DNA of 57,877 nt from assembly GCA_029253965.1 (NCBI GenBank), contig JAQWYM010000034.1, positions 1 through 57,877 of the forward strand, read 5' to 3'. This stretch comes from Gammaproteobacteria bacterium. Lineage in GTDB: Bacteria > Pseudomonadota > Gammaproteobacteria > UBA4575. Below the pieces are notes generated by a model. That model had not been told where the DNA came from. It saw only the letters and a list, made by a program, of their open reading frames with translations, and made no database searches. A program made the translations under genes and the position numbers. Shown in pieces: positions 23,171-43,282 of the stretch (the stretch's first letter is position 1; every line of letters starts with the position of its first letter).

Positions 23171-24082
23171 CTATCGAACCGCCCCTGCCCGCCAAAGTCG
23201 CCATAGTATTGGCCAGCAATAAATGAGAGGATGCTTGCGATGTCGGTCATTTATTTCAACGCGGACGCCACTGTGTCGCTCTATTTTCCAAGCCAAGTAA
23301 TCAACGCCATTTTCGAAGGTGGTTGCTGCTTTAAGTAAGCGAGCTATAGACAGTAACTTGCCCCAAACTGAGCGTATAACCCAATTCAATGCGGTCCACC
23401 CTGATGCCTTAGAAGAGTGACTAAAGCCTGCACTTAACAAGTGATTGAAGGCGTCGTCATAATGCCTTTTATTCGCATCATAAATGAGGCTTGCACGCGC
23501 CTTGCTCTCAGCACGCAGTTCAGCAGCATAGGTCTTTTGTAAAGCCTCTACCCAGAACTCTTGCGCTGTTGGCAGACCATCGAATAAGCCAATAGCCTGG
23601 GTGTATATCGTCGTGATTGAGTTAAGTTGGGCTTGAACAACCTGACGCCGCGCCTGCTCATCAAACGCATAAATTAATGCAAACGGTTGCGCAAAACGCG
23701 CCCAGAAATAAGAGTGATAAGCACGCACTGAGGTTTGTCGCAGTAGATCTTTTTCTGATAGCACTGCATACTTGGCCTGTACTTTTAGACCGTTTATTTC
23801 TACTGTTTGAAAGTAGACATTTGGCGCTAAAAAAGCATTAAGCAAGGCATGCGTTTTCGAGTCATACGCTTCCTTATAGTCATCGACAACCGCATAGAAA
23901 TCCAACATCGCAGCGTTATATTGTCGGCTACGCAGGCATGAGCCATAAAACATAACTGTACGCAATGATGAACCAAACTTGGCTTTTAGTGCGTTAGTAA
24001 ATGCCATCAAGGTTTCATCACTCACCGTAATGAGCTGCTTATCAAGATGTTGAAACAATGCTGTTGTATTAACGTTATTCAT
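23171..24082 (-). CDS. Tam41/Mmp37-like nucleotidyltransferase (candidate lipid-phosphate cytidylyltransferase)
   Basis: 303 aa. The pattern FYGS...AMLDFYAVVDD...NVYFQ...AKYAVLSEKDL parallels the N-terminal NTase domain of mitochondrial CDP-DAG synthase Tam41/TAMM41 as I recall it. ATGA overlap with the upstream kinase gene. Confidence 0.45.
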   Translation of the reverse strand: MNNVNTTALFQHLDKQLITVSDETLMAFTNALKAKFGSSLRTVMFYGSCLRSRQYNAAMLDFYAVVDDYKEAYDSKTHALLNAFLAPNVYFQTVEINGLKVQAKYAVLSEKDLLRQTSVRAYHSYFWARFAQPFALIYAFDEQARRQVVQAQLNSITTIYTQAIGLFDGLPTAQEFWVEALQKTYAAELRAESKARASLIYDANKRHYDDAFNHLLSAGFSHSSKASGWTALNWVIRSVWGKLLSIARLLKAATTFENGVDYLAWKIERHSGVRVEINDRHRKHPLIYCWPILWRLWRAGAVR

Positions 24083-25047
24083 CGCGTCAGGAAATATGCC
24101 GTTGTATTAGCATCAAGCCAAACTTCACTTGTTTTATCTTCGCCACCAAACAACTCACCATCAAGAGTAAAGCCACCTGCAATCATCAATCTAACTGTAG
24201 CTAGCTTGAGACTGATATAACCCTGATCATTAACACGCGGAGCACGGCCCCATAATATGCGCAGGCTGGCTAGTACTGATTTTTTTGAATTCACTTTGAT
24301 CAAGGTTAGTGCTAATTCATTTTCAGACTGCGCCTTACCCCAGAACGGATAAATCCCACCAATAAGGCGCTCTAAAGTAGAGGCAAGAATCACTGAAAAC
24401 TCATCCTTGGCGATTAGCTGCTGACCATGATGTACTTCTGCCATCGCAGATTGGATCAGTTTGCCACGGGTTACCCAATCTAAAAGATAGCGAAGCACGG
24501 CTAATGTTGGCCCCAACTCACCGGCAATACCGCGTGAATGAATATTCTGTCGACAATATAAAATACCTGAGTAGACAGCTCCGGCACCAAAAAACATGCC
24601 ACAGACTTCTCTGTTCTCCGCGGGAATACGCATCCGCAAGATAGGTCTTGAGCATTCCTTAACTTTATTTTTCTCACCTGAGACATAGGCCAAAAGGTCG
24701 TTAAATAGCTCGTTCAAACCGGCATTGAAGCCGATATCACCAAAGGTCATATTGGTTGTACCAGCTCGTACCACAGCAAGTTTTGGCGCATAACCTTGTG
24801 CGGCGGATCGTGACAAAAAGCTCAGCACCTTATGTAAGGTGCCATCACCCCCATTAATAATGATGACTGGAACCGCTGCAGACTGACAGGCCTCTAAGAC
24901 ACCATCCATATCACTTTCTGCACGCGTCACCTCATGCTGAACCTGTGGATAAGCTGCAACGACATCACAAAAACGTTGGAACTGACCACGCTTATTCAAG
25001 CCACTATTAGGATTGCTAATGGCTGTGATTAAAATAGCAGAGTCCAT
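24079..25047 (-). CDS. diacylglycerol-kinase-family lipid kinase (candidate ceramide kinase)
   Basis: 322 aa with the DAGK catalytic-domain motif IIINGGDGTLHKV. Confidence 0.75.
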   Translation of the reverse strand: MDSAILITAISNPNSGLNKRGQFQRFCDVVAAYPQVQHEVTRAESDMDGVLEACQSAAVPVIIINGGDGTLHKVLSFLSRSAAQGYAPKLAVVRAGTTNMTFGDIGFNAGLNELFNDLLAYVSGEKNKVKECSRPILRMRIPAENREVCGMFFGAGAVYSGILYCRQNIHSRGIAGELGPTLAVLRYLLDWVTRGKLIQSAMAEVHHGQQLIAKDEFSVILASTLERLIGGIYPFWGKAQSENELALTLIKVNSKKSVLASLRILWGRAPRVNDQGYISLKLATVRLMIAGGFTLDGELFGGEDKTSEVWLDANTTAYFLTR

Positions 25048-25053
25048 ATTAGT

Positions 25054-26370
25054 TTATCTTCTGTTTGAGCGTTTAATCAGCGAGGCAATAGTAGTGTCTG
25101 CTTGGCGCCCAGTAAACCATTGAATCACCCGTGAAGACTTTGCTTGTTCTGCATCGACGTCTTCAATCCATGGACGTAAACGACCGATAAATAAACGATA
25201 GAAAGAGGCATGTATAAAGCGTAGCGCGAGCAAAATAGTTGATAAGGCACTCCACAGTACAACCCATATAAAGCCAGCTTCAGCGTTCATCAAATAGAGC
25301 GCGATGCTCAGCAAGACTATGCAAGGATTACGTCTTGCTGTGAATAAGCGATGATACGCATCGATTGGCTTCCAGCAGAAGATCTCAATATTATCAAATG
25401 AGATCTGGAATAAGCCCTCAAATAATCGTCCACCAACATAGGCCAGTAACATCACTATAAAAAGGTGATCGAGCATCATAACCCGCCCAAAAATATCGAG
25501 CTCATTCAGCCCTAAACCCATCGCCCAACACCAGTACCATATGGGTGGATGTATAATATCTAAACCATGATCCATCCAATGCCCAAGCTTACTTGACTGC
25601 AAGCTCACGCGTGCCAACTTACCATCTACGGTATCTAAGAAAGTCATCAGCCATGCCGCTAATAGACCAAGTGCAAACTGCCCTTGGTAAAAGAGTACAC
25701 CGGCAATAACAGTCAGTATCCAGCCAAAAGATGTCACCTTGTTGGGACTGATATTCATCTCCACACAACGTCTTACCACCCATCTCGCAGGAGCTGGCCA
25801 TAACCATTTAGTGACAAAATCAGTAATGCCTTTATAAGATTTATCATAGAGGTAGTTTTCTATCTGCACTTGATCCTCTGCCACCACCTTAACCACATGC
25901 GATAGATTGAATTTGCGCAATTTAGGGTCATAGCCCCCGGTTAATGCTTCTGGCGAAAATAGTGAGACCGCCTCCCCCGCATCCTGAGCAATTTCTTGCG
26001 CTGAGTCTTCCTTCTCAATTCGAGCTAATAAGGCTGGTGCTGCGGCTGCTGAAGTCCAGGCGGCAACCACCTTGTCATCACTTGAATCAGTCAGCAGAGT
26101 GCTGCTGCTAGTATGTGTTTGTGAGATAATTTTAGACAGCAAGTAAGCGTCATATAGATAGTCTAGACGTAATATTAAAACGGCATCATCCGGCTGCAAC
26201 AATCTAAGATCATCTAGCTGCTCGAAAGCGCCTAATTTCCGCAGATTTTTTGCGATTCGCTGTTCTGGACTGACTCCCCAAAGAGGCACGTCACATTGTT
26301 TAACAAGATGGTAGTACATATCTGCTTTATTTTTGTTATGGTCAAGACAATCAAGAGACTGAATCGACAC
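25054..26370 (-). CDS. CDP-alcohol phosphatidyltransferase with a ~190-aa N-terminal soluble extension
   Basis: Exact D-x2-DG-x2-AR-x8-G-x3-D-x3-D signature (DTVDGKLARVSLQSSKLGHWMDHGLD) in a polytopic C-terminal half. The track start is a GTG. An ATG 17 codons downstream is an alternative start. Confidence 0.8.
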   Translation of the reverse strand: MSIQSLDCLDHNKNKADMYYHLVKQCDVPLWGVSPEQRIAKNLRKLGAFEQLDDLRLLQPDDAVLILRLDYLYDAYLLSKIISQTHTSSSTLLTDSSDDKVVAAWTSAAAAPALLARIEKEDSAQEIAQDAGEAVSLFSPEALTGGYDPKLRKFNLSHVVKVVAEDQVQIENYLYDKSYKGITDFVTKWLWPAPARWVVRRCVEMNISPNKVTSFGWILTVIAGVLFYQGQFALGLLAAWLMTFLDTVDGKLARVSLQSSKLGHWMDHGLDIIHPPIWYWCWAMGLGLNELDIFGRVMMLDHLFIVMLLAYVGGRLFEGLFQISFDNIEIFCWKPIDAYHRLFTARRNPCIVLLSIALYLMNAEAGFIWVVLWSALSTILLALRFIHASFYRLFIGRLRPWIEDVDAEQAKSSRVIQWFTGRQADTTIASLIKRSNRR

Positions 26371-26374
26371 TGAG

Positions 26375-27358
26375 ATGACTAATAATTCGAATCACGATAC
26401 CACTAAAAAAGGAGCGCATGCTAATGAGTCTTTCCGATTCGCGCAACTTTCAGACCCTCATCTTTCACACCTTAAAAATGCGTCAGCCTTAGAGCTCTTC
26501 AATAAGCGCATTCTGGGCTATTTATCATGGCTAAAAAGGCGTCGTAACTCGCATAAACGTGAAATTGCTGAAATTGCCATAGCGCAGTTAAAGCAGCAAC
26601 AAATTGACCATTATGTGGTCACTGGGGATCTTACCCATATCGGCCTAGAAGATGAATTCAAACAAGTTGCTAGCTGGTTAGAACAGATTTCTAGCGCTGA
26701 CAATGTCACTGTCATTCCAGGTAATCATGATCTCTATGTGAATACACGCTGGGAGCACTCTTTTCATCATTGGCAGCCATACATGCTCGGTGATGACATG
26801 ACTGAACCCGGTGAGGCCTTAGAACAAGATGCCTTAAATACATTGAATAATGTCTACCCACATGTCCGTATCCGTGGGCCTGTCGCCTTCATCAGCCTTT
26901 CCAGTGTCTTTGCTGCCCCTTGGTTTAGAGCAACAGGAAAGATCAGCTCCGCACAAATCAGTAAGCTCAAGATACTATTAAAAGACCCAAAGCTGGCTAG
27001 CTTATGCAAGGTGCTGTTGATTCATCATCCAGTCAGTAAGCATCATGTCAAAGCGCGCAAAGAATTAATTAACCAAGAAGAACTCATAGATGCCTTAATC
27101 GATACACCGGTTGAGTTAATCTTGCATGGCCATGCACATAGTCGTTTTCATGACCGCCTACAGATAGATGAAGAACGAAGTATTCCAGTTGTTGGAGCCG
27201 CCTCATGTAGTAGCGTCAGTCAGGCACAACCTTATCGTGCCCAATACCTAGTGTTTGAAGTGCGCCAGAGCGATAAACAATGGCATCTGTCTTACCAAGA
27301 CTTTGCCTATGATGCCAAGCAAGGTTTATTTGTTAACAGTAAGCGAACAGCACTCTAA
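26375..27358 (+). CDS. calcineurin-like metallophosphoesterase
   Basis: The motif series DPH, GDLTH, GNHD, HHP and GHAH appears in the canonical order. Confidence 0.8.
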   Translation: MTNNSNHDTTKKGAHANESFRFAQLSDPHLSHLKNASALELFNKRILGYLSWLKRRRNSHKREIAEIAIAQLKQQQIDHYVVTGDLTHIGLEDEFKQVASWLEQISSADNVTVIPGNHDLYVNTRWEHSFHHWQPYMLGDDMTEPGEALEQDALNTLNNVYPHVRIRGPVAFISLSSVFAAPWFRATGKISSAQISKLKILLKDPKLASLCKVLLIHHPVSKHHVKARKELINQEELIDALIDTPVELILHGHAHSRFHDRLQIDEERSIPVVGAASCSSVSQAQPYRAQYLVFEVRQSDKQWHLSYQDFAYDAKQGLFVNSKRTAL

Positions 27359-28431
27359 GTCCTAAGCTTGCGTAGGTATGTGAGTAATAGTAAAGCTAGA
27401 ATGGCAATCATACTAGGTGAGCCAGCCACAAAGACCGGCTGCCAAGCGAGTGCAAAGCCAAGATGGTTGATGATTTGGCTTAGGACATAAAAGCTCATCC
27501 CTGTGAGAACACCCAACGTAATCCTCTGCCCTGTACTGATCTGTCTTTGTGACCCAAAAACAAATGACAGCCCTAAGATGATCATAATACCTGCGGCTAG
27601 CGGTGACATCAGCTTCTGCCAAAACAAGACTTCAAACGGATAAGACTTTTCGCCTCGTTGCTTCAGGCCTTTGACAAATTTATTAAGATCAGTGATCGAT
27701 AGCGCCTGTGGGCTAGAGATAATCACACCCAACTGTTGAGCCGATAGAAAAGACTGCCATGGCAGCACATCATGATGCTTTTTCTGCATCCTCTCACCGA
27801 CTAGTATCCTTTCACTGACATTGTATAAAAGCCATTGATCTTGGCTTTGAATATCGGCATAGCTGGCAATCAAGTATCGTTGCAACTGATAATCAACAGT
27901 GAACTCAAAGATTTCAATATCATAAGGTTTACGACCTTCTTTAATATTTTTAATATGGATAAACTGGCCATCTAGTTGCGCCCAATATCCCGACTGACTG
28001 ACAAAATCACCTTGGCCAAGCGTAGCTAGGGTTTTTTCTATCTGCGCGTGTTGAAGTGTTTTAGGCACCACATACTCAGCGCTGATTAACATCAGACTCA
28101 TTATCAATGCTGCTGCGATCAAGACACTGCTGGTTATATTTCTCGGTGTCCCGCCTAAGCTTTGGATGGCAATCAATTCATGCTTCCCTGCTAAGGCACC
28201 CAAGACAACAACTGCGGCAATCAAACTGATTACCGGAGCAAAATCATTCAATATCATCGGTACATGAAGTAAGACGTAACGCAGTGACATACTCAAGTTA
28301 TAGTGACCTGTACCAATATCATCTAATTCTTCAATCAAGAGAATGATCGAAAATAGCCCAACAATAATGAGCGCGGTAATAACAAAGCCAAGGAGTACAT
28401 TACGCGCTAAATAGAGTCTCAAAATCCACAT
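27355..28431 (-). CDS. LptG-like permease (LptF/LptG, YjgP/YjgQ family)
   Basis: 358 aa. Three TM helices, a periplasmic beta-jellyroll-sized insert, then three more TM helices. Aligns loosely with E. coli LptG along its length. Confidence 0.7.
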   Translation of the reverse strand: MWILRLYLARNVLLGFVITALIIVGLFSIILLIEELDDIGTGHYNLSMSLRYVLLHVPMILNDFAPVISLIAAVVVLGALAGKHELIAIQSLGGTPRNITSSVLIAAALIMSLMLISAEYVVPKTLQHAQIEKTLATLGQGDFVSQSGYWAQLDGQFIHIKNIKEGRKPYDIEIFEFTVDYQLQRYLIASYADIQSQDQWLLYNVSERILVGERMQKKHHDVLPWQSFLSAQQLGVIISSPQALSITDLNKFVKGLKQRGEKSYPFEVLFWQKLMSPLAAGIMIILGLSFVFGSQRQISTGQRITLGVLTGMSFYVLSQIINHLGFALAWQPVFVAGSPSMIAILALLLLTYLRKLRT

Positions 28432-28434: not shown

Positions 28435-29481
28435 CTAAGCCTTCCTATAGCCACTAAGCGCTGTGATTACAGCCAATACCATGACACTCAGCCAAAGCCC
28501 CGGCAGCCTGGAAATTAGACTTTGTTCAATCCACGTCATGAGCACCAGACTTCCAGCATGCACTAACAAGAAAAGAGACAAGCCTAAAACTAAGATGCCA
28601 TAACGACCTCTGCGCGGTGAGGTTTTAGCTAAAAATATGGCTAATAAAGCCAGCAAAAAGGTTTTAGCCACCATCGTTAAACGCCACTGCAACTCAGCGA
28701 TATCCTTCGCATTATCACTTTTCCAGAGCTGTAGGGTTGATGTCGCTTTACGTTTATAGCCCAATGGTTCACGTTGCTTGATATCGGGATGCAAGATCAT
28801 CTCTTGGAAATTAATCACCTGATCATTGCCGTCATCAGAGAGCCTATAGGCGCTACCCTCTGTAAACTTCAGGCTGCCATTATTACCGTCGCTGGATGAT
28901 AGCTGTAGCCCTTCTCTAGCAATGATAATCTGACTGTTATCGTCAGCACCTTCATACATGAAGATATCTTCTTTTACCTCACCTGAACCTAGCTTTTTAG
29001 TGAAGTAAACGCGACCCGTGTCTTCACTTTCATAGAAATAGCCACCTTCTAGACGCTCAAAATCATAGCTCTCAGTCGCTTCATACTGAACTTCATACCG
29101 CAGCTGATTGGCCCATGGGCGCACCATCGTTGTCAGTATTGCGGTGATCATCGTCAACACAACAATCAGCGGTAAGAATGTTCTTATTAAGCCAGAAACG
29201 CCCATACCAGCGGCCTGCAATGCACTAATTTCCTGTTCGCTATAGAGCCTGCCTAAACCCATTAGCAGGGTAATAAATAAGGCCAGTGGGAGAAATAACT
29301 CAAATGAAGCGATGGTCTTAGCAAAGATCATCTGCGCTAACAACGCAGCTGGAATGAGGCTACTCATGGGGTCTGCAAGTAAGCTCAAGGCACTAAAGCT
29401 GACCATAAGCACTGATAGAATCAAGCTGATAGTAAGCAGTGGGCTTAAAATTTCTTTATTTAAATAAGCTCGGACAATCAA
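28435..29481 (-). CDS. LptF-like permease (LptF/LptG family)
   Basis: Same architecture as the LptG-like gene. Start placed at the TTG at 29481, giving MIVRAYLNKEIL (compare E. coli LptF MIIIRYLVRETL) with GAGAG upstream. The track ORF extends to 29553. Confidence 0.7.
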   Translation of the reverse strand: MIVRAYLNKEILSPLLTISLILSVLMVSFSALSLLADPMSSLIPAALLAQMIFAKTIASFELFLPLALFITLLMGLGRLYSEQEISALQAAGMGVSGLIRTFLPLIVVLTMITAILTTMVRPWANQLRYEVQYEATESYDFERLEGGYFYESEDTGRVYFTKKLGSGEVKEDIFMYEGADDNSQIIIAREGLQLSSSDGNNGSLKFTEGSAYRLSDDGNDQVINFQEMILHPDIKQREPLGYKRKATSTLQLWKSDNAKDIAELQWRLTMVAKTFLLALLAIFLAKTSPRRGRYGILVLGLSLFLLVHAGSLVLMTWIEQSLISRLPGLWLSVMVLAVITALSGYRKA

Positions 29482-29604
29482 GGTTAATCTCTCATTATCG
29501 CTGTTTCCAATCCAGCAACTTACATTCGTATTAGCGTCACTGACATGTAGCACGGCATAGGGCTTCAGGGTAGACTAACCCAGAACTTTAATTACATCAT
29601 TTCC

Positions 29605-30339
29605 ATGAAAGCTATCATCCTCAGCGCTGGGCAAGGACGTCGTCTTCTGCCGTATACCAAGTCTACCCCAAAATGCCTACTGGAATTAAGCCAAAAGCCT
29701 TTCATCCAATATCAGATTGATACGCTACTAGGTTTGGGTGTCGATGAGATAGTGGTCGTCGTTGGCTATGCCGCTACTGACGTTGAGCAGGTCTTACGAA
29801 AAAATTATGACTCTAGTCGAGTCCGCACGCTATACAACCCCTTTTATGAAGTTGCCGATAACCTCGCAAGCTGCTGGATGGCGCGTGAGGAATTACACGG
29901 TGAATTCATGATTTTAAATGGTGACACCCTGTTTGAAGCAGCCATCATTGAAAAACTCATCCGTGCCGATAATTATCCAATCACGCTAGCCAGTGATGAA
30001 AAGCCTGCTTATGACGATGATGATATGAAGATCAGCCATCATCAGGGGCGTATTCTCAGAATTGGTAAAAAGCTACCCTTAGAACAGGTCAATGCTGAAT
30101 CAATCGGCGCTATGAAATTTTCTAGCGAGGGTGCAACACTTTTTCGTGACCAAATCTGTCATGACATGCATCAGCCTGAAGCCTTAAGCCGTTGGTATTT
30201 ATCGGTGATTGATGAATTGGCTGCCAGTGGTAATGTCGGAACCATATCGATTCAGGGGCTAGACTGGACTGAACTAGATTTCGTACATGATCTAGAGCTC
30301 GCCAGAGCGATGGTAAGCAAATGGGCAGAGCAAGGCTAA
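29605..30339 (+). CDS. sugar/alcohol-phosphate nucleotidyltransferase (NTP_transferase family)
   Basis: N-terminal signature ILSAGQGRRLLP (GxGxRL). 244 aa, comparable to LicC / inositol-phosphate cytidylyltransferase-type enzymes. Confidence 0.75.
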   Translation: MKAIILSAGQGRRLLPYTKSTPKCLLELSQKPFIQYQIDTLLGLGVDEIVVVVGYAATDVEQVLRKNYDSSRVRTLYNPFYEVADNLASCWMAREELHGEFMILNGDTLFEAAIIEKLIRADNYPITLASDEKPAYDDDDMKISHHQGRILRIGKKLPLEQVNAESIGAMKFSSEGATLFRDQICHDMHQPEALSRWYLSVIDELAASGNVGTISIQGLDWTELDFVHDLELARAMVSKWAEQG

Positions 30340-33017: not shown

Positions 33018-33151
33018 GTGCGTTTGTTTCTCAAGAGTGCTAAATTTTAATCTATAAGAGTATAAGCACCTAGTCGACAAGGTGAAACACCTAATAATGT
33101 GCTTGTACAACAAAAACCCAATGATTTTCAAGTAACCGGTTAGGAATATTT

Positions 33152-33598
33152 GTGAACACGACCCTTGCGAAGTTCGAGTACCCACAATCTGAAATAAAGC
33201 ATTTTGAGCACTGGAGTGTTTTGTTACGACCTAAACAAGTCACCTTAGGCTCTTTAATTCTGATCGAACGAAGTGATGCGACTGCTTTTTCGGAATTAAC
33301 AGACGCTGCAATGACTGAACTCACGACTGTCATCCGTGACATTGAAGTCTGCCTCAAGTCAGCTTTCGACTACGATAAAATTAATTATTTAATGTTGATG
33401 ATGGTCGACCCGCATGTCCATTTCCATATCATTCCTCGTTACAGCTCAAAGCGGAGTTATCAGAATAACGTATTATCTGACCGTTCATGGCCAAAACCTG
33501 CTGATTTAACGGATGATCTTTTATTATCTAGAGAGGAAATGCAGGGTTTAGCTGTTTTTATAAGCGAAAACTGGCCAAAACCTGTGAAAAGAGGCTAA
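33152..33598 (+). CDS. HIT-family nucleotide hydrolase/transferase
   Basis: 148 aa with a GTG start. Histidine-triad motif HVHFHIIPR. Confidence 0.65.
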   Translation: MNTTLAKFEYPQSEIKHFEHWSVLLRPKQVTLGSLILIERSDATAFSELTDAAMTELTTVIRDIEVCLKSAFDYDKINYLMLMMVDPHVHFHIIPRYSSKRSYQNNVLSDRSWPKPADLTDDLLLSREEMQGLAVFISENWPKPVKRG

Positions 33599-35688: not shown

Positions 35689-36630
35689 GTGAGCACAGCA
35701 GTCACCTCAAATAAGACTGTTGCTCTAACTGGGGCTAGCGGATTTGTCGGTCAATCACTCTTAAAAAAACTAATTGCATCAGGGCATAAAGTTCGTGTCC
35801 TTGTGCGCAACCCAGATACTTTCAAACAGCCCAGACTTCAAACCAGCGATCAGTTGGAAGTCATCCAGGGCAACTTAAAGCCAGGCCCACATCTAGGCCA
35901 ATTACTGCAGGGTGTAGAGGCCTTAATACACTGTGCTGGTCGCGTACGTGGGCAGTGCTATAGTGAATTTGAGGAAGATAATGTTCACGGTACAATGGCA
36001 CTCATTGATGCCTGTAAGCAGTCTCCAGCGAGCATTCATTTTATTCAGATATCCTCTCTAGCGAGTCGTCAACCCCAGCTGTCGCATTATTCAAAAAGCA
36101 AATATGAGGCCGAGCAATATCTGCAAAAAAACCACCTTGGCCGATGGAGCATTATCAGACCCCCCGCTATTTATGGTGGTGATGAACAAGAAATGAGACC
36201 ACTATTTGATTGGATGCAGAGAGGCCTGTTATGGCTGCCCTGTAATGCAAATAATCGCTTTTCATTAATCCATATCAATGACCTAGCAGAACTCATAGTT
36301 AGCCATAGCTTAGAGCAGCTCAGTCTGCATAAGATTATTGAGCCAGATGATGGTCATGAGAATGGTTATTCTTGGTATGAAATTCATACTATTGGCAGTT
36401 CTGTATTTAAGCGTAAAATTCATTTACTAGCCCTGCCTCCACTATTGCTTGAAACCGCCGCTAGAGTTAATGTGGTAATCTGTCGTTTATTAGGTAAAAG
36501 CCCTATGCTGACGCCAGAAAAGCTCTCTGAACTGAGGTTTCCCAACTGGGTTGCAGCAGCAGAACTGGCCGCAGAGAACTGGATTGCAGTGATACCCTTG
36601 AATAAGGGCATCCTCTCCATATACAAGTGA
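35689..36630 (+). CDS. NAD(P)-dependent epimerase/dehydratase-family reductase (candidate ceramide reductase CerR)
   Basis: GTG start. Rossmann motif TGASGFVG and catalytic YSKSK (YxxxK). Sits between the FAAL and ACP-spt genes, as in the Caulobacter module. Confidence 0.7.
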   Translation: MSTAVTSNKTVALTGASGFVGQSLLKKLIASGHKVRVLVRNPDTFKQPRLQTSDQLEVIQGNLKPGPHLGQLLQGVEALIHCAGRVRGQCYSEFEEDNVHGTMALIDACKQSPASIHFIQISSLASRQPQLSHYSKSKYEAEQYLQKNHLGRWSIIRPPAIYGGDEQEMRPLFDWMQRGLLWLPCNANNRFSLIHINDLAELIVSHSLEQLSLHKIIEPDDGHENGYSWYEIHTIGSSVFKRKIHLLALPPLLLETAARVNVVICRLLGKSPMLTPEKLSELRFPNWVAAAELAAENWIAVIPLNKGILSIYK

Positions 36631-36663: not shown

Positions 36664-36915
36664 ATGCCCTCAGCCGAAAATAAAACACTAGCCGCCGTGA
36701 TTGAGATCCTGAGTCCTTTTGCCCCTGAAAATATTACAGTTACACCTCAGTCGACACTAATGAAAGACTTAGAACTTGATTCGGTTAAGGTCATGGAATT
36801 GATGATGAATCTTGAAGATCATTTTGATATATCAATTCCATTGAATGTTTTACCTGAGGTTAATGACATCCAAGATCTTGTTAATGAAATCGACAAAATC
36901 ATAGGCACAGTTTAG
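36664..36915 (+). CDS. dedicated acyl carrier protein
   Basis: 83 aa. LELDSVKVMEL contains the phosphopantetheine-serine motif (DSx). Confidence 0.85.
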   Translation: MPSAENKTLAAVIEILSPFAPENITVTPQSTLMKDLELDSVKVMELMMNLEDHFDISIPLNVLPEVNDIQDLVNEIDKIIGTV

Positions 36916-36917: not shown

Positions 36918-38120
36918 ATGAGTATCATGCAAAAGTTGAGTTCTATTGCTGAACAAACCTCCGGCTTAATCAACGAAAGTGGCAGCCCAATTGGCTCAAG
37001 AATTGAACGTGTTTATTCCGCCACAGAAGGTGACATTGGTGGCAGTAAAAAGATTCTCGTTGGAACTAATAATTATCTCGGTCTAACTTTTGATAAAGAG
37101 TGTATTGCGGCAGGACATGAGGCGGCATGCCAATACGGAACCGGTACAACCGGATCACGCATGGCCAACGGCTCTTATGCTGAGCATCTAGCCTTAGAAA
37201 GTGACTTGGCTGAATTCTATGGCGTTGAGCATTGCATCGTCTTTTCAACCGGTTATGTTGCCAATCTTGGCATGATCTGTTCATTAGTTGGCCCAGAGAA
37301 CACTATTTTTCTAGATGAGCATTGTCATGCCTCTATCTATGATGGCTGTAAGCTCAGTGGCGCTACCATCATTCATTTTCGACATAATAATGCCGCTGAT
37401 CTCGACAAGCGCCTGCGTCGTCTAGGGGATAATAGTGCTAACGCATTAATCATCACTGAAGGCCTCTACAGCATGCTTGGTGACAAGGCTGCCCTCCGTG
37501 AGATTGTTGAAGTTAAGAACAAATATGATGCCTTGCTTATGCTCGATGAGGCGCATTCACTAGGCGTTTTAGGCGCCACCGGCAGAGGCCTCGCTGAAGA
37601 GCTTGGCGTTGAAGATGACATTGATTTCATCACCGGTACTTTTAGTAAGAGTCTAGCGGGCCTTGGTGGCTTCTGTGTCAGCCGTCATTCTCAACTAGAA
37701 GCGGTTCGCTTCTCAAGCCGTCCTTATGTCTTCACGGCCTCACCATCACCGGCGACTATAGGCTCCGTTCGTGCAGCCCTACGCGTCATGCAAGCACGCC
37801 CCGAATTACAAAAGAAGTTATGGGACAACGCTACATTTTTGTACCATGGCTTAAAGGCCATGGGCTTCGAATTAGGCCCAGAAATTGGACCCGTAATAGC
37901 GGTTGATGCCGGAGAAAAAGAGAACGCCCTATTCATGTGGCAAGCCTTATTTGACCAAGGTGTTTACGTCAATGTGGTGTTTCCACCAGCAACTCCTAAC
38001 AGCAGCTGTTTACTACGTTGCAGTGTTAGCGCTGCGCATAGCCGTGAGCAGATGCAAGCTGTGCTCGATGCCTTCACTCAATTCAAACAACTTCAGTCCG
38101 TTACTGCAGCTCAGGCATAA
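36918..38120 (+). CDS. spt: alpha-oxoamine synthase, serine palmitoyltransferase type
   Basis: 400 aa. NNYLGL and GTGTTGSRMANG motifs, and the PLP-lysine motif GTFSKSLAGLGGF, which resembles Sphingomonas Spt rather than BioF or Kbl. 2-nt gap after the ACP gene. Confidence 0.75.
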   Translation: MSIMQKLSSIAEQTSGLINESGSPIGSRIERVYSATEGDIGGSKKILVGTNNYLGLTFDKECIAAGHEAACQYGTGTTGSRMANGSYAEHLALESDLAEFYGVEHCIVFSTGYVANLGMICSLVGPENTIFLDEHCHASIYDGCKLSGATIIHFRHNNAADLDKRLRRLGDNSANALIITEGLYSMLGDKAALREIVEVKNKYDALLMLDEAHSLGVLGATGRGLAEELGVEDDIDFITGTFSKSLAGLGGFCVSRHSQLEAVRFSSRPYVFTASPSPATIGSVRAALRVMQARPELQKKLWDNATFLYHGLKAMGFELGPEIGPVIAVDAGEKENALFMWQALFDQGVYVNVVFPPATPNSSCLLRCSVSAAHSREQMQAVLDAFTQFKQLQSVTAAQA

Positions 38121-38139: not shown

Positions 38140-38165
38140 CCTCCCTATTATCAGCCATAGGGAGG
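38140..38165. terminator. 9-bp perfect hairpin between convergent spt and GT2 genes (no U-tract)
   Basis: CCTCCCTAT (38140-38148) pairs with ATAGGGAGG (38157-38165). The 3' arm overlaps the last GT2 codons. Confidence 0.3.
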
Positions 38166-39149
38166 CAATAAATAGGCTAATGCACAAACATTGAGACGTC
38201 GCTTAAACAGGTAAGTTTTAGTCAACCCTGTCACCCCCCAGCCCTTAATCGCTAACCTTAGCCACATCTTAAAGACAACCTGTGCCAGGGCTATCTGATT
38301 GTAGACTCGCTTATCTCGGTTAGCTTGCAACAGCATCTGTAACCAGTCTGCAGCCCATAAGAAGAAGTCAGGATCAGTTTCAGCTAAAGCTTTAGGTCGC
38401 GCAATTTTGATGTGACGTTGCAGGTCTTCTGCTGTGAACTTTACACCGAGTTTCAAGAGAGCCTCTGCTGCAATAAGACATTTCTTTTGATCACCTACTG
38501 TCGAGGTATTAAAGGTGATTTGATCATCATGTTTTCGTCCTAGCACCAAGCGCTTTGGCAAGTTATGCAGCTCACCGAAGTCGGCTAGGCGCATTAATAA
38601 TTCATAATCCTGACAGCGGGTAAAATCGTTGTTATAGCCCAGCTCTTTTAAGACTGAGGCACGCGCCATAAATGTTCTATTATGAACTGCACAGTGAAAT
38701 AAAAGGCTCGCTTTGATCTTTTGGTTACTCAGCGGACGAGTACAGAGGCGCTTGATAACCTTACCTTCTGCGTTTATATACTGACTCCAAGAACCTAAGC
38801 CAACACACTCGGCATGAGCATCAAAGTAGTCCAGCTGTGTCTGTAAGCGCTTAGGCAGCATAATATCGTCACTATCTAATAGTGCGATGAACTCTCCTCT
38901 AGCTTCTTCTAAGCCTCGATTACGCGTTCTAGGGATACCTAAGTTTTTTTCATTACGGAACAGGCGTATACGTGGGTCTTGATAGGCCTCAATGATTTCA
39001 ATTGAACGATCAACTGAACCGTCATCGACTAATACCACTTCAAAATCAGTGAAACTTTGTGCTAGTACGCTATCGAGAGTCTCTACTAAATAACGCTCTC
39101 GGTTATAAACGGGAATAAAGACCGTTACTCTTGGGGCTGCTGTACTCAT
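38151..39149 (-). CDS. family 2 glycosyltransferase
   Basis: VFIPVYNRERYL...VDDGSVD...LDSDD (DxD) motifs. Confidence 0.85.
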   Translation of the reverse strand: MSTAAPRVTVFIPVYNRERYLVETLDSVLAQSFTDFEVVLVDDGSVDRSIEIIEAYQDPRIRLFRNEKNLGIPRTRNRGLEEARGEFIALLDSDDIMLPKRLQTQLDYFDAHAECVGLGSWSQYINAEGKVIKRLCTRPLSNQKIKASLLFHCAVHNRTFMARASVLKELGYNNDFTRCQDYELLMRLADFGELHNLPKRLVLGRKHDDQITFNTSTVGDQKKCLIAAEALLKLGVKFTAEDLQRHIKIARPKALAETDPDFFLWAADWLQMLLQANRDKRVYNQIALAQVVFKMWLRLAIKGWGVTGLTKTYLFKRRLNVCALAYLLPPYG

Positions 39150-39357: not shown

Positions 39358-40170
39358 ATGAATCTACGTCGCACTCGCAAAGAAACAGCCGCCTACTCAC
39401 TGAGTAAGCGCCTAGCTAGCTATTTCCGAAGTAGTACGGGAGTACTGCTGAAGCGCATGGATGTTAGCTTTGTTAGTCTTGGCAAAAAACAATATAAGCG
39501 CATTACTTGTATAGACAACTACACTCCCATACATATGCAAGATCTTTTAGCCCAGGTGGCTAGAAGCCGCTATTTCCCGAAGACTTTAATTCGATATGAG
39601 AATGAAATCTGGGTTGAGTTTGTTGATGGCGATATCGTCAAGAAAATTGATTCATTTTTTATTCAACAGATCATAGATTTTTATTCTTCTCTCTATCAAT
39701 GTGCTTCGGCGTTAAAGAGTTCAGAAAACTTTCTCGGCGCTGCATTAATTGATCTAGAGTTTCTAATGGATATGGAACTGCTTTCTGAACAAGACCATGA
39801 ACAACTACGGCATCTCTTACTAAAGAATGCGCCTGAAAAAGTATGGGTTGGCTTGGATTACACCGATGCTTTATTGAAAAACTTTGTTCAAGAAAAGGGC
39901 AGTAACCGCCTTGTCGCTATTGATATTGAAAGCTTACAAGATAAGCGTTTAATCGGTTTTGGCTTAGCCAAAGCACATACAACTTGGATGACAGACCAAC
40001 AGTTTGATCAAGTCATTGAAGGCATGCGCATGAATGAAACGCCGGCGTTTTATGATTATTATCTGTTTGTATTGCTTTGTTTTCGTGCGCGCTGGTTAAA
40101 AAGTCTTTTCTTACGCAAAAAAATGAAACGACTCAAGATAAATCTATTGACCGATTTAATCACTGATTAG
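39358..40170 (+). CDS. hypothetical protein, possibly with a protein-kinase-like / lipid-sugar kinase fold
   Basis: 270 aa. LDYTDALLKNFV...LVAIDIESL resembles the catalytic-loop and metal-binding segments of Kdo/WaaP-type kinases. The resemblance is weak. Confidence 0.35.
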   Translation: MNLRRTRKETAAYSLSKRLASYFRSSTGVLLKRMDVSFVSLGKKQYKRITCIDNYTPIHMQDLLAQVARSRYFPKTLIRYENEIWVEFVDGDIVKKIDSFFIQQIIDFYSSLYQCASALKSSENFLGAALIDLEFLMDMELLSEQDHEQLRHLLLKNAPEKVWVGLDYTDALLKNFVQEKGSNRLVAIDIESLQDKRLIGFGLAKAHTTWMTDQQFDQVIEGMRMNETPAFYDYYLFVLLCFRARWLKSLFLRKKMKRLKINLLTDLITD

Positions 40171-40198: not shown

Positions 40199-40897
40199 TT
40201 ATCGTCCCAACATATTAAGCAAACTTTGTCTAAAGCTGAGTTTATTAATCACCACAATAAATACCTTTCGGTACTGCCCTTGGGGACAGGTAATCTCTTC
40301 GACGCCATGCCAGCTATTTCCATTACGCGAAAATAAGAGGCTGTTGTTGCCGGTTGCATTCGCTCGTTGTGAACTTTTGAAATCAGAAAACTTTGGACTA
40401 GATTGGCGTTTAAACTGGCCACCATCATCAAGAATTAAAGTATCCCCTCCCCACTCCGGCTGCCACTCTTCGGGCGTATTAAAATAGAAGATATGAGAAC
40501 CAATCTTACGCATCGCGTCGCAGTGTGGTGATACCGAGCAGCCACGTGGTGTGTAATGCCAATGGAAGCGCAGCTCAATCCGATTGAGACCTGTCATGCG
40601 CTTAATAAATTGTTTGTAGTCATTCGATGTGAGTTCCTGCATAAACTCTTTCCATGCAGGCGATAAGGCCAACCCAGAATGATACTCTAAAGCTAAACGA
40701 TCATGGCTTTCCTGACCGAACTTGCGCTTGTGTCCAAACTTTTCATCAAACAGTGTGGTTTCAGGCATGGAGTCAATAAGTGCCTGATAGCGATCCGCTT
40801 GGATAAACTCAGAGATACCCAGCCAAGGATAAGGACTTGTCGTTTTATACGACTGCTCATCTAAACCTTGCATCATTGTTTGATTAAGATATTTCAT
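40199..40897 (-). CDS. 2OG-Fe(II) oxygenase-like protein
   Basis: 232 aa. HxD (SPHCD) plus a distal His (SWHGV) in a double-stranded beta-helix-like context. Confidence 0.5.
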   Translation of the reverse strand: MKYLNQTMMQGLDEQSYKTTSPYPWLGISEFIQADRYQALIDSMPETTLFDEKFGHKRKFGQESHDRLALEYHSGLALSPAWKEFMQELTSNDYKQFIKRMTGLNRIELRFHWHYTPRGCSVSPHCDAMRKIGSHIFYFNTPEEWQPEWGGDTLILDDGGQFKRQSSPKFSDFKSSQRANATGNNSLLFSRNGNSWHGVEEITCPQGQYRKVFIVVINKLSFRQSLLNMLGR

Positions 40898-40933
40898 TTT
40901 TTAGTATCCCAAAGCGGCGTCATTACAGCCAGA

Positions 40934-43282
40934 TTAACTGCGATAATTCAGTTGTCGTGAAATAAAGGATACGGTATCCAATAACTCAGCATCAGGCTCA
41001 TCCATCAGTACAAAATCATTTTCTGTTAACTCTGTAATCTCATCCAAATAGCAGATATGTTTGCGTAGCTTCATATTCTCCAAGAATCCATCAATATCAC
41101 GCACAGATGTCATCCAGCCATTCGCAATAAACTGGTCATATAACCGTGCCAAACTATTTTGTTGCTTCGGTGTCCCACGATAACTTGCTGTTCTCTGCTG
41201 ATAGATTGCAAGCCATTGAAGTCCTCGAGTCAAAGCCATTAATACATCGAGCCTTTGTGGCAAACGCTGCACATAAACCTGCTTCTTGAGCTTACAGATT
41301 TCGCTGATCATGGAGACACTATCGCCGGTCACTATGACGCTATCCGCTAATGAGAGGCAACCTAGATACGGGCTTTCTGCTTGCCCAGATTTCCACTCAA
41401 AAGCGATATTACGGCTTCTCAATTCCGCTCTAAACCAAGCTAAAGCATGCTTTGGTGTGCGTGGACTGGTGCAGATTAAAACGGATTGATTATTCTTTTT
41501 CGCCAGTTCATCCACGGCCTGAGCCATTTTCTTCATGACCGCCTGATTGATGATATACGGCCGGCTTGGGCCACCTATAACGACGCTTATATAAGGCCCT
41601 GGACATGACGACAACTGAGGCAGCAAATCAACCTCATTAGTGCGCAAGTGGTCGTTAGAAATACTATTAAAGGGCAGACAGTTTTGAATCACATTATTGC
41701 GTAACGGCAACTGATATTGCGGTGTCGTAACCACCAAATCAAAATGCTTTAGCGCACACCATGGACGCCCAATATGAATCAAACGTGTCTTACCTGCCGA
41801 TGCCTGTTTAATCCAGCGCGCAACAGGGGCTGCTCGACGCCCGGAAGAGAGTACGTAATCTGGCCATTCTGCCGATTTAAGGTTGGCTGCTGACTCTGAA
41901 GTAACACCCAGTAAGCTAGGCCCTAAAACGTAATTTGGAATATGGTTAAGCAGATGGAAACGCAGAGGTTTAGTTTCGCAATTCCAGCCCAACTCAGCAG
42001 CCAACTTCTCTAGCTGTGCATTATCACCTTTTCGATGAGTGGTTAATATCCAGACATTCTGCAGCCGACCGTGTTGACCTGATTGATAGCATACTTTTTC
42101 AACACCAGCCTGCGTAGTCCTCTGATAATTCAGCGTCCACTTTATAGATGGGAATGCATATGCAATCTCGAGAATCTGTTCACGCCACCAGCCTACTGAT
42201 TGTTGGTTACGTTCTATAGCATAGCCATCAGCGAGTAATAGCGGGGCATCGTGATACTCAACAAATAACTCGAGTACTTCATTGGCCGCAGAAAACAGAC
42301 TGCGTAGTAGCCAAGCGACATCAGTTTGTGGCACACGTTCAAGTAAGTGACGAGCTATCAGCCTTGAACAAGATAGTGACTGTAACTGTGCTAACTTATT
42401 ACTCTGGTGAGAACTGTCATTATCAGCTAGATCTAAGGTCGCTCCATTGACTGTCACCTGCCCCAGACTGACCGTTATCACGGCAGTAGACTCTAGATCT
42501 ACTGAGCCCTGTGTTTGAACATGCAATTTTTGCAGCGCAGAAAAAGCGGTACTCGTCTGCTCTGCGGTAAAGTTCTGATAGCCCTCATTGATGGCACTCT
42601 TTTCTAAATCAAACCAAAGATGACTCAAGCTATGCGGATGATAAGAATAGCTCTCTGGACTCGGCTGCCAAGGTTGTAAATGTAAGGCGGTAAAATGCAG
42701 CACCTTAGTCTCACCTTCAATATACTCGAAGTCGCGTGCGTTCCATTGCTGATCTGCAGAGCCCCAAAGGCCTTTCTGAGCTGCTCCACGCTGATTTAAT
42801 TCTTTTTTTGATTCTTGCTGAGCAGCCTCTAGATTCCATAAGGGCAACATACGCTGACAGTCGATCAACATCACCGAGGTATCACTCGCTGCGACCGCAA
42901 GGTAGGCATGCTCATCCATTTCAGCATCGAATAGCAGAGCAGGATCTTGAAGGTATATCTGATCAACATCGTTATAGATTGCACGTCCACTACCACCGGC
43001 AAGTGTCGGAATAGCGTATCGATAACAGGTAAAACCAGTACGCCAAGTAGAACGATCAAAACCCTTTAGGTTTTTCATGATATGAATTTCATAACTACGC
43101 TTCGGATCACGCACTTTTTCTATCGAATAGATAAAAACGCGTTCAGCACGATACTGGGCATCTTCAGAGCCTAAAAAGATACGCACAGGCGGCTTTGATG
43201 AGGCTGTTGCTGCAGGCAAAATAACCACTTCTGGGCTAGTGCTGTAGAAACTTGCTTGTTCTATGTGTTTGGGAGATTTCAT
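40934..43282 (-). CDS. fusion protein: N-terminal GT8-like nucleotide-sugar transferase + C-terminal ELM1/DUF1022-like putative glycosyltransferase
   Basis: 782 aa. The N-terminal part has AIYNDVDQIYLQDP (DxD). The C-terminal part starts VWILTTHRKGDNAQ, as in the ELM1 family. Confidence 0.5.
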   Translation of the reverse strand: MKSPKHIEQASFYSTSPEVVILPAATASSKPPVRIFLGSEDAQYRAERVFIYSIEKVRDPKRSYEIHIMKNLKGFDRSTWRTGFTCYRYAIPTLAGGSGRAIYNDVDQIYLQDPALLFDAEMDEHAYLAVAASDTSVMLIDCQRMLPLWNLEAAQQESKKELNQRGAAQKGLWGSADQQWNARDFEYIEGETKVLHFTALHLQPWQPSPESYSYHPHSLSHLWFDLEKSAINEGYQNFTAEQTSTAFSALQKLHVQTQGSVDLESTAVITVSLGQVTVNGATLDLADNDSSHQSNKLAQLQSLSCSRLIARHLLERVPQTDVAWLLRSLFSAANEVLELFVEYHDAPLLLADGYAIERNQQSVGWWREQILEIAYAFPSIKWTLNYQRTTQAGVEKVCYQSGQHGRLQNVWILTTHRKGDNAQLEKLAAELGWNCETKPLRFHLLNHIPNYVLGPSLLGVTSESAANLKSAEWPDYVLSSGRRAAPVARWIKQASAGKTRLIHIGRPWCALKHFDLVVTTPQYQLPLRNNVIQNCLPFNSISNDHLRTNEVDLLPQLSSCPGPYISVVIGGPSRPYIINQAVMKKMAQAVDELAKKNNQSVLICTSPRTPKHALAWFRAELRSRNIAFEWKSGQAESPYLGCLSLADSVIVTGDSVSMISEICKLKKQVYVQRLPQRLDVLMALTRGLQWLAIYQQRTASYRGTPKQQNSLARLYDQFIANGWMTSVRDIDGFLENMKLRKHICYLDEITELTENDFVLMDEPDAELLDTVSFISRQLNYRS

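Follow-up and report, generated by a model that had tools for sequence, protein, structure and literature searches.

A probable orthologue of the Caulobacter ceramide-phosphoglycerate and LptF2/G2 cluster on a contig from an uncultured marine gammaproteobacterium

What kind of sphingolipid locus lies on contig JAQWYM010000034.1 (assembly GCA_029253965.1), a sequence of 57,877 nt from a Gammaproteobacteria bacterium of the GTDB lineage UBA4575, and did it arrive there as an island? A preliminary description of this contig, which was analysed here over its whole length and is called the window below, had placed a sphingolipid island of about 20 kb at 23171-43282. Our analysis indicates that the segment 22.7-38.1 kb is very probably the orthologue of the Caulobacter cluster for ceramide, ceramide phosphoglycerate and LptF2/G2 (CC_1152-CC_1165), and that it occupies a stable chromosomal locus. 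All open reading frames (ORFs) of at least 110 aa in 22.7-47.5 kb belong to one lipid-related neighbourhood, with the sole exception of a 120-aa ORF in a 1.6-kb indel. The G+C content (GC) is ~44% across 1-49 kb of the window, and metagenome contigs from Tara Oceans, JGI and ENA encode proteins that share 90% identity or more with those of the window.

The ORFs of the window were searched against Pfam and NCBIfam profiles, with equivalog cut-offs, and by sequence against the PDB, and AF2/AlphaFold models were compared with PDB folds. Window proteins were aligned by BLAST with fetched loci of relatives (numbered with the prefix L). A genome scan with an alignment of the ceramide synthase bCerS returned more than 588 relatives; the neighbourhood counts given below refer to the best 80, many of them on incomplete contigs. 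A metagenome scan was anchored on a flanking 862-aa gene, and the neighbourhoods upstream of it were read. Even at permissive E-values, neither Pfam nor NCBIfam gave a match for the proteins of 303, 382 and 91 aa described below; the 382-aa and 303-aa proteins were identified through the domains of their homologues, and the latter also through its fold.

The ceramide core is centred on a plus-strand operon at 33874-38120. Its last gene (36918..38120, plus strand) encodes a 400-aa oxoamine synthase that is predicted to be the serine palmitoyltransferase Spt. The protein scores 583 bits against the equivalog model NF047599 (cut-off 500), Aminotran_1_2 spans its full length, and the translation contains the pyridoxal-phosphate (PLP) lysine motif GTFSKS in the context ITGTFSKSLAG. 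Under the NCBIfam models for BioF (325 bits), Kbl (309 bits), CqsA (229 bits) and 5-aminolevulinate synthase (ALAS, 212 bits) it stays below each model's own cut-off. Searches of solved structures gave 388 bits for the serine palmitoyltransferase (SPT) of S. paucimobilis, 387 bits for that of S. wittichii and 288 bits for that of Sphingobacterium, against 224 bits at best for Kbl, at most 203 for BioF-type enzymes, 150 for ALAS and 131 for CqsA. The identity to E. coli Spt is 55%. The gene arrangement is that of Rhodobacteria-type Spt, with an acyl carrier protein (ACP) gene ending at 36915, spt starting at 36918, and ligase and reductase genes upstream on the same strand.

The gene directly upstream of spt (36664..36915, plus strand) encodes AcpR, a predicted dedicated ACP of 83 aa with a Pfam PP-binding match and an LDS phosphopantetheine site. 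The predicted acyl-AcpR synthetase AasR, of the fatty acyl-AMP ligase type (33874..35646, plus strand), scores 755 bits against NF006624 (cut-off 600) and is 47% identical by BLAST to its E. coli homologue; the BL21 counterpart has been shown to acylate AcpR (PMC9386255). Between the two lies the gene for CerR (35689..36630, plus strand), a putative NAD(P)H-dependent 3-oxo-ceramide reductase of the extended short-chain dehydrogenase/reductase (SDR) type, with Pfam NAD_binding_10, Epimerase and 3Beta_HSD matches, the motifs GASGFVG (GxxGxxG) and YSKSK (YxxxK), and 34-38% identity to the operon partners in E. coli (35%) and in Azotobacter and Pseudomonas (36-38%).

Two minus-strand genes diverge from the aasR operon. 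The first (31116..32264) encodes a predicted bCerS of 382 aa, a GNAT ceramide synthase of the CC_1154/YghO type. Many of its 6926 homologues carry PF00583, and it is 41% identical to E. coli YghO over 361 aa and 44% identical to the protein of Caulobacter sp. D5 over 364 aa; YghO has been given as the counterpart of CC_1154 (PMC9386255). The second (32298..33185) encodes a putative di-iron fatty-acid or sphingoid hydroxylase (Pfam FA_hydroxylase, 7.8e-21), whose true start is probably at 33017, giving 239 aa, as relatives have 239-243 aa. A hydroxylase gene also stands directly upstream of bCerS in Pelagibius and in metagenome-assembled genomes (MAGs) of Nitrospirota. Between the divergent units lies a gene for a CC_1157-like HIT-family protein (33152..33598, plus strand; Pfam HIT, HVHFHII triad), placed like FOB45_16300 in P. 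luteola and like its equivalent in P. asuensis (L073).

These results bear out what the preliminary description had said of the core, namely a fatty acyl-AMP ligase, a reductase, an ACP and an Spt-type synthase at 33874-38120 with a GNAT-like protein and a di-iron hydroxylase divergent beside it, to which the intervening HIT gene is added. It had named a grouping of the synthase with BioF, Kbl or CqsA as grounds for rejection, and the scores place the enzyme with the SPTs. The adjacency of the four genes is indeed that of the Caulobacter block. Their order is not reversed, as had been stated, since aasR-cerR-acpR-spt runs as in the reference alphaproteobacterial locus.

The genes around the core match a published set. 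The Caulobacter locus CC_1152-CC_1168 comprises 17 genes, including the ceramide genes aasR (CC_1165), cerR (CC_1164), acpR (CC_1163), spt (CC_1162) and cerS (CC_1154) (Olea-Ozuna et al. 2024, PMC11324152). Six further genes are needed for ceramide phosphoglycerate (CPG) and diphosphoglycerate (CPG2): CC_1161 (CpgC, Tam41-like), CC_1160 (CpgB, a ceramide kinase), CC_1159 (CpgA, a CDP-alcohol transferase), CC_1158 (a calcineurin-like phosphoesterase), CC_1153 (a MobA/CofC-like nucleotidyltransferase) and CC_1152 (a nucleotidyltransferase); the locus also holds the HIT protein CC_1157 and second copies of LptF, LptG and LptC (PMC11324152). The clusters of A. vinelandii (Avin_44240-44370) and P. 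luteola (FOB45_16280-16340) are contiguous in the order spt-acpR-cerR-aasR-HIT-cerS-1153-1152-lptF2-lptG2-1159-1160-1161, and horizontal transfer from an alphaproteobacterium to gammaproteobacteria has been suggested (PMC11324152, Fig. 7, S2 Table). From 38120 to 23171, in descending coordinates, the genes of the window follow the same order with two intercalated genes, the hydroxylase (FAH) and a metallophosphoesterase (MPE): spt-acpR-cerR-aasR-HIT-(FAH)-cerS-1153-1152-lptF-lptG-(MPE)-cpgA-cpgB-cpgC. Each of the 16 core genes is covered by a domain or equivalog assignment. Since the head-group and export genes match the published CPG2 and LptF2/G2 genes in the same order, they are not a new assortment; the sphingolipid core has already been described, and the sugar-adding genes alone may be new.

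For each of the six Caulobacter CPG2 genes the window has a counterpart of the same family. Three of them form an operon on the minus strand whose order, cpgA-cpgB-cpgC, is that of CC_1159-1161 and Avin_44350-44370. The CpgC-like protein (23171..24082, 303 aa, CC_1161-type) is predicted to be a CTP:ceramide-1-phosphate cytidylyltransferase with a Tam41 fold. Its homologues carry PF09139 (Tam41_Mmp37), and its AF2 model (pLDDT 92) matches the Tam41 CDP-diacylglycerol synthases 6ig4 (E 5e-8) and 7ecd (2e-7) best among PDB folds, with other nucleotidyltransferases ranking below. It is 33-41% identical to homologues in Pelagibius and on a Pseudomonas plasmid, and its gene stands behind cpgB as in Caulobacter, Azotobacter and Pseudomonas. 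The CpgB-like protein (24079..25047, 322 aa), a candidate lipid (ceramide) kinase in the position of the ceramide kinase CC_1160, matches DAGK_cat (6.7e-12) and contains GGDGT. The CpgA-like CDP-alcohol phosphotransferase (25054..26370, 438 aa, CDP-OH_P_transf) lies in the position of CC_1159, has an N-terminal cytoplasmic extension and holds the full DxxDGxxARx8Gx3Dx3D motif; its start is likely at ~26319, relatives having 417-424 aa.

The remaining three counterparts are spread over both strands. A calcineurin-like metallophosphoesterase of the domain family of CC_1158 (26375..27358, plus strand) matches Pfam Metallophos (1.8e-12) and contains GDLTH, GNHD and GHAH. A CC_1152-like protein of 244 aa (29605..30339, plus strand; NTP_transferase, NTP_transf_3), a putative sugar- or alcohol-phosphate nucleotidyltransferase, shares 52% identity with the Caulobacter sp. 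D5 homologue and 55-57% with those of Azotobacter and Pseudomonas. A CC_1153-like nucleotidyltransferase of the MobA/CofC type (30350..31123, minus strand) matches NTP_transf_3 and, weakly, the MobA and CofC models of NCBIfam.

Between these genes lies a pair of permease genes on the minus strand. The LptG2-type permease (27355..28431) scores 295 bits against TIGR04408 (LptG, cut-off 240) and is placed within the sphingolipid locus like CC_1155, and the LptF2-type permease (28435..29553) scores 242 bits against TIGR04407 (LptF, cut-off 230) in the position of CC_1156; the latter likely starts at ~29481, relatives having 348 aa. The pair is flanked by the CC_1152-like gene and cpgA and has no pepA neighbour. 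Against canonical LptG structures the window LptG scores 139-170 bits, compared with 194-308 bits for the pepA-linked LptG of Halomonas; the lower scores suggest a paralogue and are not decisive. Profile searches found no ABC (ATP-binding cassette) ATPase, the family to which LptB belongs, in 22.7-47.5 kb. In Caulobacter, LptF2/G2 are required once sphingolipids are made and bind the single LptB, and lptF2/G2 are present in many alpha- and gammaproteobacterial sphingolipid loci (Uchendu 2026, preprint). In Halomonas sp. IOP_31 (L014, JAIRBP010000010.1), the ceramide core, an MsbA-like ABC transporter, a family 4 glycosyltransferase (GT4), an ELM1 gene, a family 2 glycosyltransferase (GT2) and a 2-oxoglutarate (2OG) oxygenase adjoin lptG-lptF and pepA-holC-valS. 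This layout implies that in some gammaproteobacteria the sphingolipid genes abut the housekeeping LptFG and lack a pair of their own.

Compared gene by gene with the Caulobacter locus (CC_1152-CC_1168, CCNA_01210-01226), which has been studied repeatedly (Olea-Ozuna 2021 and 2024; Stankeviciute 2022; Zik 2022; Uchendu 2026), the window holds a same-family counterpart for 14 of the 17 genes: Spt, AcpR, CerR, AasR, bCerS, the kinase, the Tam41-like protein, the CDP-alcohol transferase, two nucleotidyltransferases, the phosphoesterase, HIT and LptF/LptG. Unlike the Caulobacter locus, it has no LptC2, Wzx-like flippase or CC_1167 homologue. The cpgABC genes lie at the far end from spt, which is the gammaproteobacterial order, whereas in Caulobacter they adjoin spt. 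The FA_hydroxylase gene forms part of the cluster, its role in Caulobacter being filled by the unlinked CCNA_00202, and an extra glycosyl cassette and a GT2-GtrA-PMT_2 fusion gene are attached. The A. vinelandii and P. luteola clusters have the identical order, which the congeners A. beijerinckii (L056) and P. asuensis (L073) were found here to share, with identities of 25-57%, and to their set the window adds the hydroxylase, the metallophosphoesterase, a 91-aa ORF and the right-hand glycosyl genes; no CC_1158 orthologue was reported in either species (PMC11324152). The yghO-spt locus of E. coli B and UTI89 resembles the window in having aasR-cerR-acpR-spt, a divergent yghO (bCerS) and an accessory lptF/lptG pair, with 45% identity for AcpR besides the values given above for Spt, AasR, YghO and CerR. 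It differs in that the part seen (L009) is without CpgA/B/C, nucleotidyltransferase, HIT and hydroxylase genes and has other neighbours (YtfJ, a flippase-like gene). Spt, AcpR and AasR of E. coli BL21(DE3) have been characterised biochemically (Padilla-Gomez 2022, PMC9386255).

A pathway can be proposed from these assignments. The steps from AasR to CerR, the CpgB-type kinase and export by LptF2/G2 are established in model organisms and are assigned here by homology. AasR would load a fatty acid onto AcpR, and Spt would join acyl-AcpR and serine to 3-oxosphinganine. This product would be N-acylated by bCerS, and CerR would then reduce the 3-oxo group to give dihydroceramide. The hydroxylase of the cluster may hydroxylate the acyl chain or the long-chain base. 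The CpgB-like kinase would produce ceramide-1-phosphate, which the Tam41-fold CpgC-like enzyme may activate with CTP to CDP-ceramide. The CpgA-like transferase, the two nucleotidyltransferases, the phosphoesterase and the HIT protein could then build an anionic (poly)phosphoglycerate-type head group. The right-hand cassette may add and tailor sugars, and the GT2-GtrA-PMT_2 fusion could use a polyprenyl-phosphate sugar to modify the lipid on its periplasmic side. Extraction of the finished lipid from the inner membrane would fall to LptF2/G2, driven by the housekeeping LptB.

Several observations weigh against the assignment to the Caulobacter cluster. Orthology to CpgA/B/C, CC_1152, CC_1153 and CC_1158 is predicted from domain family, gene order, published tables and intermediates; the intermediates are Pelagibius, Robiginitomaculum and, for two genes only, Caulobacter sp. 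D5, whose contig (L090), the only one found from Caulobacter, ends at bCerS. The sphingolipid genes of Halomonas adjoin the canonical pepA-lptFG, and the dedicated second pair is a candidate from one window. The left flank of the window, described below, is unlike that of its relatives. The CpgA-like and CC_1152-like proteins weakly resemble inositol-phosphate enzymes, and the head group is a prediction. This last resemblance raises the possibility that the same ceramide backbone carries another head group, such as phospho-inositol or another phospho-alcohol or phospho-sugar, which we regard as unlikely. The best NCBIfam likenesses of the 438-aa protein are archaetidylinositol-phosphate and phosphatidylinositol-phosphate (PIP) synthases (E 2e-11 and 5e-10), the 244-aa protein matches inositol-1-phosphate cytidylyltransferase/DIPP (di-myo-inositol-phosphate-phosphate) synthase (E 6.5e-18), and the enzymology of CC_1152, CC_1153, CC_1159 and CC_1161 is unresolved even in Caulobacter (PMC11324152). 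However, these scores fall far under the cut-offs (44 bits against 180, and 65 against 580) and reflect superfamily membership, and the locus holds no inositol-phosphate synthase; for these reasons an inositol-phosphoceramide is kept as a minor rival only. The six CPG2 counterparts in the locus, five of which are found in A. vinelandii and P. luteola and keep the published order, also favour the phosphoglycerate type. It is scarcely credible that the oxoamine operon makes a sulfonolipid, an alpha-hydroxyketone signal, or a biotin or threonine intermediate beside unrelated lipopolysaccharide (LPS) genes. Such a function would fit the significant sub-threshold scores of the BioF, Kbl and CqsA models, the public annotation of the 90% cluster of Spt as '8-amino-7-oxononanoate synthase', and the LPS equivalog cut-offs passed by LptF and LptG. 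Yet the SPT equivalog is passed with a score 258 bits above BioF, characterised SPTs exceed Kbl by more than 160 bits among solved relatives, and the AcpR/AasR pair, bCerS and CerR are all present, in a linkage that recurs in dozens of genomes.

The origin of the locus was weighed in the same way. That 23171-43282 is a horizontally acquired island of ~20 kb, with a truncated NIF3 gene at the right and a gene-poor scar at the left, appears improbable, and the locus is not supported as a recent island. GC in 22.7-43.3 kb is 43.9%, against 44.2% in the flanks, and the tetranucleotide correlation between the two is 0.95; in 5-kb windows it is 0.91-0.93 inside the cluster and 0.88-0.92 outside. No integrase or transposase was found among the ORFs of 20-48 kb, no tRNA lies at the cluster edges (tRNAs occur only at 56.6-57.9 kb), and the longest direct repeat between the proposed ends is a chance-level match of 13 bp. 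DNA alignment to the relatives L012 and L013 (76-78% identity) is collinear over 30985-43325, 44935-48998 and 56614-57877, so that synteny extends past the proposed right edge at 43282. Since searches anchored on the cluster cannot show empty sites, the metagenome scan was anchored on the flanking 862-aa gene. At 84-99% identity and with 10 kb of upstream flank, the stretch from Elm1 to Spt is kept in five of five contigs; at 51-54% identity and with more than 2.6 kb of flank, spt lies upstream in five of six, the sixth contig being too short. Down to 51% identity, all relatives whose flank was long enough have the cluster, next to the same right-hand neighbours. Exact matches to the 862-aa protein were found on short contigs only, and for the MerR-like protein of the left flank no further contig was returned.

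The NIF3 gene, with which the right edge had been said to coincide, is truly truncated. The remnant (NIF3/YbgI, 43320..43757, plus strand) lacks its 5' part and matches only residues 101-257 of a 259-aa NIF3 (43320-43748); the N-terminal 100 residues were found neither at the opposite cluster end nor in any other part of the window. It lies, together with the 120-aa ORF, which has no matches, in the window-specific 1.6-kb segment 43326-44934 (GC 38.8%), where L012 and L013 have 303 bp instead. As the remnant is inside an indel that the relatives lack, it indicates a local indel and not the scar of a cluster insertion. Relatives at 76-86% identity have ~0.3 kb at this site. In Candidatus Litorirhabdus singularis (L096:1582-2361) a full-length NIF3 gene lies ~3 kb from sphingolipid genes, which may be coincidence.

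At the left, the stretch described as gene-poor holds a conserved 91-aa ORF (22721..22996, minus strand), a companion at the cpgC end that directly follows cpgC in gammaproteobacterial relatives; it is 86-89% identical in L004 and L015 and 72% identical in the distant MAG L006/L017. Beyond it, complete urease operons and a urea ABC transporter directly follow the ORF in relatives (L004:19594-21149, L015, L016), whereas the window has a 333-aa MerR-family gene and ferredoxin, HbpS-like and CbiX genes at 21126-22720, and a search of the window for a urease remnant at this flank found none. The difference implies some rearrangement or indel at the left junction. It could be read in favour of an island, as could the mobility of the cluster type over evolution, which is seen in its order in Nitrospirota, in plasmid carriage and in the published transfer suggestion. 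The preferred reading, a stable chromosomal locus of the Caulobacter type, accommodates the cluster being present and collinear in every relative examined and of the same composition as its flanks, which the island proposal does not. Of the earlier account of the edges, the truncated NIF3 stands and the boundary does not. The count of at least 12 further lipid, head-group, glycosyl and export genes is also upheld, with 15 beyond the core within 23171-43282, the majority of them CPG2 head-group and LptF2/G2 genes already known.

The cluster is distributed widely. All 16 genes in identical order, the 91-aa ORF included, occur on two divergent gammaproteobacterial MAG chromosomes (L006 and L017) at identities of 41-73%, and A. 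beijerinckii and P. asuensis lack the hydroxylase and the phosphoesterase and otherwise agree in order. In three Nitrospirota MAGs (L046, L060, L081) 14-15 genes are ordered as in gammaproteobacteria; HIT and the hydroxylase are present in L046 and L081 and the phosphoesterase in L060, and in two of the three an ELM1-family gene adjoins spt. That gene order is the same in Nitrospirota and gammaproteobacteria implies that the cluster passed between phyla as a whole. Except for the 91-aa ORF, every gene, including the hydroxylase, has a homologue in the alphaproteobacterium Pelagibius sp. CAU 1746 (L007), where the arrangement is Caulobacter-like and cpgC adjoins spt. Within 10 kb of bCerS in the best 80 loci, spt was found in 48, lptG in 41, lptF in 40, the phosphoesterase in 41, cpgC in 34 and the CC_1153-like gene, placed directly downstream of bCerS, in 59. 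At least 80% of the five-gene core (aasR-cerR-acpR-spt-yghO) is present in 4068 of 5426 complete E. coli genomes (75%), beside glcC and accompanied by the accessory lptF/lptG pair; RefSeq names the gene spt. The host, which had been called uncommon, is therefore not, given this frequency and the arrangement published for A. vinelandii and P. luteola.

The cluster type also occurs in Halomonas and on a conjugative Pseudomonas plasmid. The latter, pBYT5-2 of Pseudomonas sp. BYT-5 (L008, NZ_CP097491.1; 136 kb, conjugative, MOBP/MPF_I), carries spt-acpR-cerR-aasR, bCerS, a CC_1153-like gene, lptF/lptG, a lipid kinase, a Tam41-like gene and a metallophosphoesterase, together with a 781-aa ELM1/GtrOC1 gene, an LpxO-like Asp/Asn beta-hydroxylase, a CDP-alcohol transferase and a cytidylyltransferase; an IS481 transposase and a replication gene lie near its sphingolipid genes. 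The identity of gene order across phyla, the plasmid carriage and the transfer suggested earlier (PMC11324152) make a deep horizontal spread of the cluster type likely.

To the right of spt lies a four-gene cassette. The first gene (38151..39149, minus strand) encodes a GT2 glycosyltransferase (Glycos_transf_2, 1.5e-36); a 47% identical homologue stands beside Elm1 in Halomonas (L014), and the gene is absent from L163, L110, L006 and L160. The next, a 270-aa ORF (39358..40170, plus strand), is possibly an APH/ChoK-like small-molecule kinase, as suggested by a weak thiamine-kinase match (E 0.043) and a DxxxxN...IDxE motif; a sequence search of the PDB was empty, and the ORF is conserved (84-95%) only in near relatives. 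It is followed by a gene for a 2OG-Fe(II) oxygenase (40199..40897, minus strand; 2OG-FeII_Oxy_3, 1.3e-6) with a 52% identical homologue in the Halomonas locus, and by one for a two-domain glycosyltransferase of the ELM1/GtrOC1 family (40934..43282, minus strand, 782 aa; Mito_fiss_Elm1 at residues 419-678).

In the AlphaFold model of the 782-aa protein (pLDDT 86), the N-terminal part resembles GT8-like GT-A folds (LgtC, glycogenin, 3tzt) and the C-terminal part GT-B folds (MurG, UDP-GlcNAc 2-epimerase, polysialyltransferase). Both plasmid pBYT5-2 and Halomonas sp. IOP_31 have an orthologue of 38-41% identity next to sphingolipid genes, and NCBI names the homologues 'ELM1/GtrOC1 family putative glycosyltransferase'. 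An ELM1-like protein of Acinetobacter is required for addition of the third Kdo/GlcNAcA (3-deoxy-D-manno-octulosonic acid/N-acetylglucosaminuronic acid) to the lipooligosaccharide (LOS) core (PMC10936431). This protein, A1S_2903 of A. baumannii, shares with the 782-aa protein the Mito_fiss_Elm1 domain and a GT-B-like fold; it differs from the window protein in that the latter carries an extra GT8-like domain at its N-terminus and lies with sphingolipid genes instead of in a LOS core locus.

Beyond the indel, the 862-aa gene (44960..47548, plus strand) encodes a GT2-GtrA-PMT_2 fusion (Glycos_transf_2, GtrA_DPMS_TM, PMT_2; ArnC/GtrA/ArnT-like), which is predicted to be a probable periplasmic modifier of the lipid. 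Its three domain types, a GT2 polyprenyl-phosphate-sugar synthase, a GtrA membrane domain and a PMT_2/ArnT GT-C domain, are those of the ArnC/ArnT and GtrA/GtrB/Gtr systems. In contrast to those systems, they are joined in one polypeptide, which in many lineages is linked to sphingolipid rather than lipid A genes. Homologues at 37-44% identity stand beside a CC_1152-like gene and HIT in 18 loci, beside spt-acpR-cerR-aasR in five and beside cpgB/cpgC in one. In the loci L117-L149 (e.g. L120:10001-15944), a 37-44% identical fusion is followed by a CC_1152-like nucleotidyltransferase and a HIT protein that are 46-52% identical to those of the window. In L120 a FA_desaturase-family gene and a histidine phosphatase come next, and this recurrent trio is separate from ceramide genes.

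The stretch between spt and the fusion differs among lineages. In L163, L110 and L109, which are among the more distant relatives, the four-gene block is missing and spt directly abuts the 862-aa gene. In the sister lineages L160 (2059-9660) and L006 (831-4106), the gap holds genes for NeuB, NeuC (UDP-GlcNAc 2-epimerase), a phospholipase D (PLD)-like protein, a methyltransferase, a CMP-sugar synthetase and two proteins of ~455 aa without assignment. These genes form a nonulosonic (sialic-acid-type) cassette linked to the ceramide locus and hint at ganglioside-like bacterial lipids. From this linkage we infer that glycan cassettes vary in this stretch, which would be a slot with spt at one end and an Arn-like periplasmic modifier at the other. 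Tentatively, and with more doubt than confidence, such a swappable cassette could yield an LPS-core-like, strain-variable glycosylated anionic sphingolipid, sialylated and ganglioside-like in sister lineages, that is exported by LptB-F2G2 and undergoes Arn-like modification in the periplasm. The literature searched describes neither this class of glycosylated anionic sphingolipid nor such a locus architecture.

With this locus, an abundant uncultured marine gammaproteobacterial lineage joins the organisms predicted to make Caulobacter-type anionic sphingolipids exported by LptF2/G2. The whole set of ~15 genes keeps its order as it travels between phyla and on a conjugative plasmid, and the host range of the pathway is not narrow, its core being present in three quarters of complete E. 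coli genomes. The recurrent links of sphingolipid genes with ELM1/GtrOC1 glycosyltransferases, the ArnC/ArnT-like fusion and, in sister lineages, sialic-acid-type cassettes point to undescribed glycosylated surface sphingolipids. Such lipids would bear on outer-membrane biology, polymyxin-type susceptibility and seawater lipid biomarkers.

Scanning 22.0-41.9 kb for promoters and terminators returned 44 promoter-like sites against 40 expected, which is the chance level, and the scan was not used as evidence. Further to the right, the 7.6-kb segment 48999-56613 is missing from L012 and L013, which have 163 bp instead, and adjoins two tRNA-Arg genes (56624-56700 and 56908-56984). It consists of a block of 31-33% GC with a 593-aa double-GT2 gene (49972-51753) and a short polysaccharide-deacetylase ORF, and a second block of 51-52% GC with SnoaL-like and LysR genes; its tetranucleotide correlation with the remaining window is 0.71. 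This segment, rather than the sphingolipid cluster, looks like a real island.

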